Shown piece by piece: positions 163-6,346 of a stretch of 6,346 nt of DNA. A program made the position numbers and the translations under genes. Origin of the DNA: a virus (Duplodnaviria; Heunggongvirae; Uroviricota; Caudoviricetes); IMG/VR virus record IMGVR_UViG_2660238176_000005; one strand, given 5' to 3'. The first letter of the stretch is position 1. Each line of letters begins with the position of its first letter. The notes under the pieces were generated by a model. That model saw only the letters and a list, made by a program, of their open reading frames with translations, made no database searches and was not told the origin of the DNA.

Positions 163-361
163 TCCATCACCGAAAAAAATTGGCTTTTACACCATTGGCG
201 ATAAAAGCATTTACCTGTATGACCTACGCCGCATGGATGAAATCATGGAGGCTCTTGATAATCGTTCGTCGATGGATTGGTGTGTTGCTGTTCATGATAT
301 GAATGCAGGGTTTGATGAAAAGATTTTGTTCCCCTCATCAGTTGAAAGCACTGCGGGTTAA
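163..361 (+). pseudogene. 3' portion of a gene interrupted by the left IS copy; the track ORF 131-361 begins inside the IS terminus
   Basis: The open frame runs without a break from inside the IS end (ATG at 131) to TAA at 359-361. The stop directly precedes the AGGAG Shine-Dalgarno of the next gene, so this was the upstream member of the same operon. No family recognised. Confidence 0.35.
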
Positions 362-371
362 GGAGTAACAC

Positions 372-539
372 ATGACCACTATTACCAAAGAACGTATTGA
401 ATTGTTCATTAAAAACCCGCTTGAAAACGGGCTTACCCGTGGTGAACAAATGGAACTGGCACGGATTGCGCTGGCATCGCTGGAAGCAGAGCCGGTTGTG
501 TTCTGGTTTGAAAAATATCAAGAAGGGGCTACGGCATGA
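372..539 (+). CDS. Hypothetical small protein, 55 aa ([55 protein letters not shown]); paralogue of the next gene
   Basis: Not in the supplied ORF track, probably because it is short. AGGAG at 361-365 sits 6 nt before ATG 372. The stop overlaps the next start as ATGA (536-539). It shares an MTT-x-T-K/R-E N-terminus and an IAL-SL-AEP motif with the 114 aa product downstream. Confidence 0.6.
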
Positions 540-880
540 CGACTTTTACCAGAGAGCAGTTAATAGCTCACGCAGAGGAGACTATTGAAGCACAGAGACT
601 GTGCATACCGGGCACAATCGACCATGACATCATCCGCACATATAAGATGGATATTGCTGTTCTGGAAATCGCACTGGTATCGCTGGCAGCAGAGCCAGCC
701 GGTAAATTGCATGAATACAAACCAGTGGGATATCAGCGTCTGGTCGATGAGTTAACCATGCTGGTAAAGCAGTTAACCTGGCAACTGAGGAAAGCGAAGC
801 CAGACTGCAAATTACCGGATAAGGCGATGAGTTATCTGGAGCGGAACGGACTGATAAGCGTGGAGGATATTTTACGATGA
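536..880 (+). CDS. Hypothetical protein, 114 aa; N-terminal half paralogous to the preceding 55 aa protein
   Basis: ORF from the track. Start overlaps the upstream stop (ATGA) and its own stop overlaps the next ATG (ATGA at 877-880). Shared motifs MTTFTREQ / [10 protein letters not shown]. No family recognised from memory. Confidence 0.65.
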
Positions 881-960
881 CCTGGCCTGAAGCATTAACA
901 ACGGTAGGAATTGCGATGGCGGTGGCGCTGGTGGTGTATTCGATTTGCCGCTGGGGATAA
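877..960 (+). CDS. Small hydrophobic peptide, 27 aa ([27 protein letters not shown]), predicted single transmembrane helix
   Basis: GGAGGA at 863-868 lies 8 nt upstream of ATG 877. The ATG overlaps the stop of the 114 aa gene. The hydrophobic core [14 protein letters not shown] is long enough to span a membrane. Below the ORF-track size cutoff. Confidence 0.45.
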
Positions 961-1171
961 AAACGGTTTGCGGGAAAAGGAGAGTTAAGTAGAATTGCAG
1001 CGGGTGCTTGAGGCTATCTGTCTCAGGCATGAACACCAAAAGGCAGATAGAGAAAAGCCCCAGTTAACATTACGCGTCCGGCAAGACGCTTAACATTAAT
1101 CTGAGGCTCAATCTATGAACGGCAAATCTAGGTTAGCCTCTTACGTGCCGAAAGGCAAGGAGAAGCAGGCT

Positions 1172-1327
1172 ATGAAGCAGCAAAAGGCGATGTTAATCGC
1201 CCTGATCGTCATCTGTTTAACCGTCATAGTGACGGCACTGGTAACGAGGAAAGACCTCTGCGAGGTACGAATTCGAACCGGCCAGACGGAGGTCGCTGTC
1301 TTCACAGCTTACGAACCTGAGGAGTAA
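1172..1327 (+). CDS. hokD: Hok/Gef-family type I toxin (HokD/RelF-like), 51 aa
   Basis: Translation MKQQKAMLIALIVICLTVIVTALVTRKDLCEVRIRTGQTEVAVFTAYEPEE matches my recollection of E. coli HokD/RelF and the Hok/Gef consensus (N-terminal TM helix, conserved Cys, C-terminal periplasmic tail). AAGGAGA at 1157-1163 sits 8 nt before the ATG. The track ORF 1115-1327 is an in-frame upstream extension. Confidence 0.85.
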   Translation: MKQQKAMLIALIVICLTVIVTALVTRKDLCEVRIRTGQTEVAVFTAYEPEE

Positions 1328-1395
1328 GAGACCAGGCGGGGGAGAAATCCCTCGCCACCTCTGATGGGGCAGGCATCCTCAATGCACCCACACTT

Positions 1396-1425
1396 AACCC
1401 GCTTCGGCGGGTTTTTGTTTTTATT
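1396..1425 (+). terminator. Rho-independent terminator / hok mRNA 3' hairpin
   Basis: CCCGC (1398-1402), UUCG tetraloop (1403-1406), GCGGG (1407-1411), followed by TTTTTGTTTTTATTTT. Confidence 0.6.
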
Positions 1426-4297: not shown

Positions 4298-4373
4298 GGC
4301 CCTTTAGCTCAGTGGTGAGAGCGAGCGACTCATAATCGCCAGGTCGCTGGTTCAAATCCAGCAAGGGCCACCA
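4298..4373 (+). tRNA. tRNA with anticodon CAU, most similar to minor tRNA-Ile2 (ileX/ileZ-like; decodes AUA after lysidine modification); Met cannot be excluded from the anticodon alone
   Basis: Full cloverleaf read by hand: acceptor GGCCCTT/AAGGGCC, D-arm GCTC-AGTGGTGA-GAGC, anticodon loop CTCATAA, T-arm GCTGG-TTCAAAT-CCAGC, discriminator A, encoded CCA. Near-identical to my memory of E. coli ileX. Confidence 0.8.
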
Positions 4374-4473: not shown

Positions 4474-4550
4474 GCGTTGTTAGCTCAGCCGGACAGAGCA
4501 ATTGCCTTCTAAGCAATCGGTCACTGGTTCGAATCCAGTACAGCGCGCCA
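4474..4550 (+). tRNA. tRNA-Arg, anticodon UCU (decodes AGA/AGG); phage argN/argO-like
   Basis: Cloverleaf read by hand: acceptor GCGTTGT/ACAGCGC (one G-U pair), D-arm GCTC-AGCCGGACA-GAGC, anticodon loop CTTCTAA, T-arm ACTGG-TTCGAAT-CCAGT, discriminator G, encoded CCA. Confidence 0.8.
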
Positions 4551-6057: not shown

Positions 6058-6184
6058 ATGGCATTTAAACACTATGATGTTGTCAGGGCGGCGCCGCCGT
6101 CAGATCTTGCGGAAAAGCTGACACATAAACTGAAAGAGGGCTGGCAGCCGTTTGGTAGTCCGGTGGCCATAACCCCTTATACCC
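6058..6184 (+). pseudogene. 5' fragment (42 codons, MAFKHYDVVRAAPPSDLAEKLTHKLKEGWQPFGSPVAITPY) of a gene interrupted by the right IS copy
   Basis: ATG at 6058 (an in-frame ATG also at 6043). The frame runs straight into the IS terminus at 6185, so the rest of the track ORF 6043-6231 is IS sequence. Confidence 0.4.
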
Positions 6185-6346
6185 TGAGGTGTACTGGCAA
6201 TAGCGGACACTACCATTTGTTCTTTTTTTAAGCAGCCATCTGATGATATTTTTCCCTGAAGGCTGCCGGGGAGATATTCCCCAGACGAGAGTGACGACGC
6301 TGACGATTGTAGAAAATCTCAATGTATTCCCGTATTACTGAGATGG
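6185..6346 (-). mobile_element. Second copy of the same IS3-family element end, inverted relative to 1-162, IRR facing inward, truncated by the window edge
   Basis: Exact reverse complement of 1-162; terminus TGAGGTG... begins at 6185. Confidence 0.7.
6228..6346 (-). CDS. IS3-family transposase OrfB, C-terminal fragment (minus strand; stop complement at 6228-6230)
   Basis: Mirror image of the 1-119 partial CDS. Confidence 0.7.
   Translation of the reverse strand, partial: ISVIREYIEIFYNRQRRHSRLGNISPAAFREKYHQMAA

Follow-up and report, generated by a model that had tools for sequence, protein, structure and literature searches.

Directly upstream of hok in a lambda-like prophage remnant lie three small open reading frames (ORFs) that encode 55, 114 and 27 amino acids and are joined by overlapping stop and start codons. 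Does this trio form a toxin-antitoxin (TA) or defense cassette, or does it belong to the accessory genes that lambda-like phages exchange freely? We addressed this question in the stretch of 6,346 nucleotides that carries the three ORFs (the window), together with its relatives in bacterial and phage genomes. The trio proves to consist of ordinary, heavily shuffled lambda-like phage accessory genes, rather than a TA or defense cassette.

Inverted IS600 ends (1–162 and 6185–6346, 100% complementary) flank the window, which represents 6 kb of a lambdoid prophage. The features around the trio are collected in Table 1. The left IS600, which ends at 162, cuts the 5′ end of the phrog_1714 gene at 163; the listed ORF 131–361 starts inside the IS sequence, matches to intact prophages begin at window position 163/164, and relatives carry an intact version of this gene (87 aa). 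Since the IS600 insertion took away the upstream operon, expression of the trio in this particular window is uncertain. The bracketing of the whole remnant by IS600 is reminiscent of a composite transposon, and the right copy adjoins a small ORF (6059–6190).

Table 1. Coordinates of the trio and of the adjoining modules in the window
Feature	Position	Strand	Description
Preceding early-operon gene, 3′ part	163..361	+	phrog_1714 family, E=5e-37
55-aa gene	372–539	+	Head module (residues 1 to ~41, MTTITKERI…) and 14-aa tail
114-aa gene	536–880	+	Head (residues 1–54), short linker and C-module (~68–114, ELTMLVKQL…)
27-aa gene	877–960	+	Putative single-pass membrane peptide
hok/mok/sok cassette, complete, separate module	1002..1425	+	Rfam, Pfam, terminator scan
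Leader and sok region	1002–1177		Rfam sok RF01794, 112 bits
mok	1115–1327	+	
hok	1172–1327	+	Pfam HOK_GEF, E=3e-23
Terminator	1396–1413		Terminator scan

Beyond the hok cassette are a rem-like ORF and DUF968, RusA-type and Q-type ORFs, assigned in part by comparison with an intact relative (L001, 98.8% identity), and two tRNAs. The tRNA genes (4298–4373 and 4474–4550) are located downstream of the Q-type gene. One has the anticodon CAT and is read as Met by ARAGORN and as tRNA-Ile in the annotation of the relative, and the other is Arg-TCT. A full-length match to the sRNA family STnc100 (RF02076; 5247–5436, 132 bits, E=7e-30) follows downstream of the tRNAs. Phage 933W has the hok/mok/sok block in the same arrangement, the 27-aa ORF included, annotated there as sokW/mokW/hokW.

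The trio begins 10 nt downstream of the end of the preceding gene. Each ORF has a Shine-Dalgarno sequence: AAGGAG (360–365), 6 nt 5′ of the ATG at 372; GAAGGGG (approximately 522–528), about 8 nt 5′ of the ATG at 536; and GGAGG (862–866), 10 nt 5′ of the ATG at 877. Stop and start codons overlap as ATGA at 536–539, between the 55- and 114-aa genes, and at 877–880, between the 114- and 27-aa genes. The 55-aa protein is 33% identical to residues 1–54 of the 114-aa protein (BLASTP, E=1e-5), and both match the PHROG profiles phrog_60, 3323, 660 and 5117. In the 27-aa product, a single hydrophobic stretch spans residues 6–24, with a mean Kyte-Doolittle value of 2.16. The description in the first-pass annotation, which had listed three small ORFs with ATGA at both junctions and a Shine-Dalgarno sequence each, homology between the first protein and the N-terminal half of the second, and a hydrophobic single-helix peptide as the third product, is therefore accurate. 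That annotation could assign none of the products to a known family, and none falls into a characterized one: Pfam, NCBIfam and PADLOC give no usable match, and the PHROGs are of unknown function. The three ORFs are real genes, coupled in translation, and members of shuffled accessory families.

The setting of the trio is best seen in the intact relative, where a single strand carries the repressor/cro genes, replication genes, an ead/Ea22-like array, the trio, hok, DUF968, RusA and Q. At least six junctions between annotated early genes of this relative are 4-nt overlaps. Thus, the coupling within the trio is real but not distinctive, because such overlaps are routine in operons of this type. 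A simple consensus scan, which a weak promoter could escape, revealed no promoter-like site on the + strand between positions 100 and 1000.

Homolog searches with the two larger proteins define a common head of ∼40–55 residues, which starts with MTTxTKE…, comprises two helices and closes in a near-invariant 10-residue motif. Some proteins end with the head; in others it leads into variable middle segments of up to ∼200 residues or alternative C-terminal modules. One of these modules is the DUF551 domain (…HWMPLPEPPQEVNQ), and another is a C-module of ∼45 residues (ELTMLVKQL…), which is present on the 114-aa protein of the window. Alignments of the homologs place the mosaic joints at EAEP. The 55-aa protein, named 'Eaa/EaA protein' in some sources, matches phrog_3323 (E=1.3e-19) and phrog_60 (E=4.3e-18), and the 114-aa protein (RefSeq WP_000206826.1, 'hypothetical protein') matches phrog_660 (E=8.2e-43). 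The 114-aa protein represents the minimal form, composed of head and C-module. We collected 238 word-indexed homologs, many with partial coverage and some with DUF551; a profile search extended the family to 1116 representatives at 50% identity, with lengths between 50 and 395 aa. Two other proteins, an Ead_Ea22 protein and a dATP/dGTP pyrophosphohydrolase, end in the C-module as well. Both larger proteins fall into a very large family of small helical phage proteins that recombination has shuffled, and their genes are new members of known but uncharacterized families.

Neither of these two proteins matched any family in Pfam (E≤0.1) or NCBIfam (E≤1). The AF2 model of the 114-aa protein is all-helical at low confidence (mean pLDDT 60), and a Foldseek search of the PDB with this model gave no match better than E=0.8; no fold is assigned. 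A sequence search of the PDB with the family profile returned coiled-coil noise alone (E≥0.04).

The 55-aa protein consists of the head and a 14-aa tail, joined at the conserved EAEP joint, and its first 38 residues recur unchanged at the N-terminus of proteins of 101, 260 and 300 aa. That tail also forms the C-terminus of an HNH endonuclease of phage ArgO145 and of a 61-aa head-only protein of PhiR49_2; both genes are located directly upstream of a 114-aa gene (98.5–98.8% identical). Since the tail is borne by two other proteins in front of a near-identical 114-aa gene, it travels with the translation-initiation region, including the ribosome-binding site, of that gene, with the EAEP joint as the crossover. 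Around the motif, the two adjacent genes of the window are identical at 25 of 33 nt. A natural in-frame deletion fusion of 101 aa (P0075 and L023) joins the head of the 55-aa protein to the C-module of the 114-aa protein at EAEP. End-to-end read-through fusions of the two genes (P0046 and P0047, 167–168 aa) were observed in assemblies of sequencing runs.

To follow the 27-aa gene, we searched viral contigs with a degenerate DNA pattern for WPEA…VG…MA. Of the 128 instances recovered, 122 share the start, the stop and the length of 27 aa; the rest comprise a variant of 24 aa and a few copies with read-through or a frameshift. The start, stop and 27-codon frame are kept by 42 distinct DNA variants. 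On codons that are not fixed by the search pattern, pN/pS is 0.31 in frame (0.18 for codons 16–26), compared to 1.5–1.9 in the shifted frames. The most divergent variants differ by more non-synonymous than synonymous codon changes, with hydrophobic residues swapped for hydrophobic ones, and all of them retain W3-P-E-A, G11, Y21-S22 and R25-W26. What selection maintains thus appears to be the helix character of the peptide, not its exact sequence. Chance matches to the pattern in other genomes had the ORF shape in 0 of 28 cases.

The peptide gene behaves as a unit with respect to its surroundings. Its ATG forms a module boundary at which matches in E. coli genomes and phages start (window position 877), following DUF551 genes, and its stop codon forms another, at which matches end (960/961). 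In 109 of 111 instances, the gene is coupled to the one before it by an overlap of start and stop codons (4 nt in 99, 1 nt in 10), and a GGAGG-type motif always precedes the start in the coupled instances. Upstream of the gene are 62 distinct proteins with at least five kinds of gene end, including some unrelated proteins; the partner ends in DUF551 or the C-module in 82% of the instances. Directly 3′ of the stop codon are at least ten unrelated sequences, among them the hok promoter, about five intrinsic terminators and the next gene. With a frame that is kept under divergence and independently of the flanks, the 27-aa ORF is, on the evidence of its conservation, best regarded as a genuine gene.

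Two other origins of the peptide ORF were considered and rejected. It is not part of the hok cassette, as hok is located within 600 nt in 66 of 120 instances and is absent from that distance in the other 54. It is not a truncated DUF551 gene either, since a direct comparison reveals no similarity to the 185-aa DUF551 proteins. A 90%-identity cluster does group the peptide with these 185-aa proteins, one of which is a frequent upstream neighbor of the peptide gene; the grouping looks like a database artifact.

In a scan of one genome per species, true hits to the peptide gene were found in Escherichia and Shigella only, apart from two tiny contigs with an E. coli-type gene, assigned to Xanthomonas pisi (L138, 431 nt) and Acinetobacter idrijaensis (L157, 369 nt), which are probably contamination. 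The gene is present in 95 phage records, including 933W, VT2-Sakai, VT1-Sakai, BP-4795, P1-like phage-plasmids and Av-05. The last of these is a virulent Vequintavirinae (rV5-like) phage of 121 kb, in which a 220-aa head-family gene is followed by an ATGA-coupled peptide gene (L166, 842–1581). This pair shows that exchange occurs between temperate and virulent phages, and since a virulent phage carries the peptide gene, a role in lytic infection is more plausible than one in prophage maintenance.

The 27-aa ORF is not annotated by PGAP, and its exact sequence is called on 15 contigs, compared to at least 1000 contigs for its neighbors. In phage vB_EcoS-689R5, a 36-aa ORF in another frame (MTGLRHLQRQ…; L007, 3626–3736) is annotated over the peptide gene, apparently owing to a mis-call or to an indel of 1 nt in that record. 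No homolog of the peptide was identified in the K-12 prophages Qin (10-kb part), Rac and CPS-53, and a literature search for the peptide sequence gave no match. Rfam contains no family that matches positions 877–960, the sok match being confined to the cassette downstream. Comparisons with KdpF (E=0.12), DUF883_C (E=0.029) and phrog_4612 (E=0.011) all fell below the cut-offs. The peptide gene thus constitutes a small, real and overlooked family and is the mildly new item of this locus.

The first-pass annotation had interpreted the trio as a TA or small defense/anti-defense cassette that replaced relBE, in which the 55-aa product would neutralize the 114-aa product, the 27-aa product or both. 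Its appeal is apparent: the genes are small and tightly coupled, all three products are uncharacterized, relBE takes their position in Qin, and TA modules lodge nearby (hok here, and a convergent toxin/antitoxin pair just downstream in ArgO145). Nevertheless, we now consider this interpretation very improbable. The gene order in K-12, relB-relE-hokD-rem-ydfU-Q, bears out that Qin has relBE directly upstream of hokD, but the junction with hok is only one of at least ten found downstream of the peptide gene. Profile and structure searches lend no support to a TA role: PADLOC-DB v2 yielded 0 families at E≤1 for the three products and both neighbors, and no TA superfamily domain was found in the trio products with Pfam, NCBIfam and PADLOC or by PDB sequence and fold matching. 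The 4-nt overlaps are the norm in operons of this type, and the consensus scan, a weak test, detected no promoter of the trio's own. Type II systems rely on a fixed pair, whereas the pairing of the 55- and 114-aa genes is facultative. In 16 cases the 114-aa gene is preceded by the 55-aa gene; elsewhere its upstream neighbor is an HNH endonuclease (5 cases), a 170-aa protein (3), a 61-aa head (1) or, directly, the phrog_1714 gene (1). The 55- and 114-aa genes also occur fused, and the 114-aa gene is retained at 98.5% identity where the 55-aa gene is missing. A 114-aa toxin that depends on the 55-aa protein is improbable, because such arrangements would then not be viable. The block of the 114- and 27-aa genes recurs close to xis/int, on their upstream side, within the ea region, and the convergent pair that it adjoins in ArgO145 is unrelated. 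The 27-aa product resembles type I toxins as a small hydrophobic peptide, but the gene has neither an antisense RNA on a transcript of its own, as judged with Rfam, nor restrained translation, given its GGAGG motif and stop/start coupling; its many upstream partners and its occurrence in a virulent phage also speak against a TA cassette. What stands of the original proposal is that the locus is a site of module exchange, with numerous alternative neighbors on both sides.

Other readings concern single members of the trio. Recombination may have left the 55-aa ORF behind as a by-product without function, a head stranded at the EAEP crossover, with the 114- and 27-aa genes as the only functional ones. 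Such an origin would account for a protein that is only a head and a tail from the region upstream of the 114-aa gene, for the identity of that head with those of the 260- and 300-aa proteins, for the absence or fusion of the gene in relatives, and for the nucleotide identity of the motif region between the adjacent genes. We regard it as somewhat unlikely, since the gene, which has kept its frame and a good Shine-Dalgarno sequence, recurs without change on more than 1000 contigs, and since a 61-aa head-only variant with another head exists; an intact and widespread gene, together with this variant, suggests that head-only forms are tolerated or used. The 27-aa peptide, in turn, might be a membrane-active effector of host killing or shut-off in lytic growth, made only when the early operon is derepressed and delivered or regulated by the preceding head-family protein. 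Its size and hydrophobicity are those of type I toxins, it has a strong Shine-Dalgarno sequence and obligatory coupling to the upstream gene, the upstream partners mostly share two kinds of C-terminus, and it occurs in temperate as well as virulent phages. However, many small single-pass peptides are benign regulators, neither an antisense RNA nor an Rfam element was found at 877–960, and the upstream partners include unrelated proteins, which makes such an effector quite improbable. A variant of this idea, in which the peptide (WPEA…YSxCRW) and the coupled head-family, DUF551 or C-module protein would form a two-part unit for host takeover or counter-defense, with the soluble domain picking the target and the peptide acting at the membrane, is also improbable, if a little less so.

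The explanation that we favor, and consider likely, is that the trio comprises co-transcribed, translationally coupled accessory genes of a lambdoid early operon, made up of members of a shuffled head family and a separate, conserved gene for a 27-aa peptide. The genes would be expressed from the early (pR-type) operon in lytic growth, after derepression. By analogy with Ea22, the head may serve as a helical scaffold, or as a part that binds partners, on which exchangeable C-terminal domains are displayed, and the head-family proteins may act as accessory factors that modulate the host or phage development. The peptide is predicted to insert in the inner membrane with its N-terminus out and its C-terminus in, with E5 on the N-terminal side and R25 on the C-terminal side, and could pack against itself or a host membrane protein by a small-xxx-small face (G11/A15, A13/A17). 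Its gene rides on the 3′ end of head-family genes by means of the stop/start overlap, often as the last gene before a terminator or hok. By the same analogy, the trio products are most likely early host-modulating accessory proteins.

These results remove a tempting but unsupported candidate for a TA or defense system: ATGA coupling, small gene size and proximity to hok are all normal in the mosaic early regions of lambdoid phages. The head shared by the two larger proteins acts as a recombination joint in a family whose representatives at 50% identity number more than 1000, and a second portable C-terminal module is now documented besides DUF551. In addition, a conserved gene for a 27-aa peptide goes unrecognized by standard annotation in Stx phages of medical relevance and in E. 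coli and Shigella genomes that number in the hundreds. The peptide is a cheap target for studies of small proteins.

Among known systems, relBE of Qin and other type II TA pairs resemble the trio in their small size, their overlaps and, for relBE, the slot upstream of hokD. They differ in that the trio displays no homology to them, no detected promoter and no conserved pairing. The 27-aa product is comparable in size to the type I toxins Hok, Ibs and ShoB and to the regulators KdpF and AcrZ, which likewise have a single hydrophobic helix. In contrast to these small hydrophobic peptides of E. coli, to which it has no significant similarity, it is phage-borne, and it is translated by coupling to the upstream gene, unlike the type I toxins, which are controlled by antisense RNA.

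The protein YfdT of the cryptic prophage CPS-53 in E. coli K-12 carries a head of this kind (MTTFTNKELIKEIKERISSLEVRDDIERRAYEIALVSLEVEP), nearly identical to the heads of two homologs (P0092 and P0114) with the C-module of the window. The C-terminal half of YfdT differs from the window proteins. The only reported phenotype of YfdT is that yfdS or yfdT, together with yfdQR, inhibits replication initiation in multicopy (PMC4776307). YfdS has no such head; a shared head as the basis of the redundancy between YfdS and YfdT was rejected for this reason, and the phenotype is not assignable to the head.

The closest parallel is provided by the Ead/Ea22-like and DUF551 proteins (lambda Ea22; PF13935 and PF04448). 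Ea22 has been described as a mosaic of an N-terminal oligomerizing scaffold and a portable C-terminal domain, and DUF551 as a 'portable domain' (PMC10834534). The window proteins do not match the Ead_Ea22 and DUF551 models, and the N-terminus and coiled coil of Ea22 differ in sequence from the head, so that the link consists of shared mosaic modules only: many DUF551 proteins start with the head of the window proteins, and their C-module recurs on an Ead_Ea22 protein. The two groups occupy the same neighborhoods, namely the ea/exo-xis region and the early region that follows the replication genes, and they share the same design, in which a conserved helical N-terminal part is combined with swapped, portable C-terminal domains.
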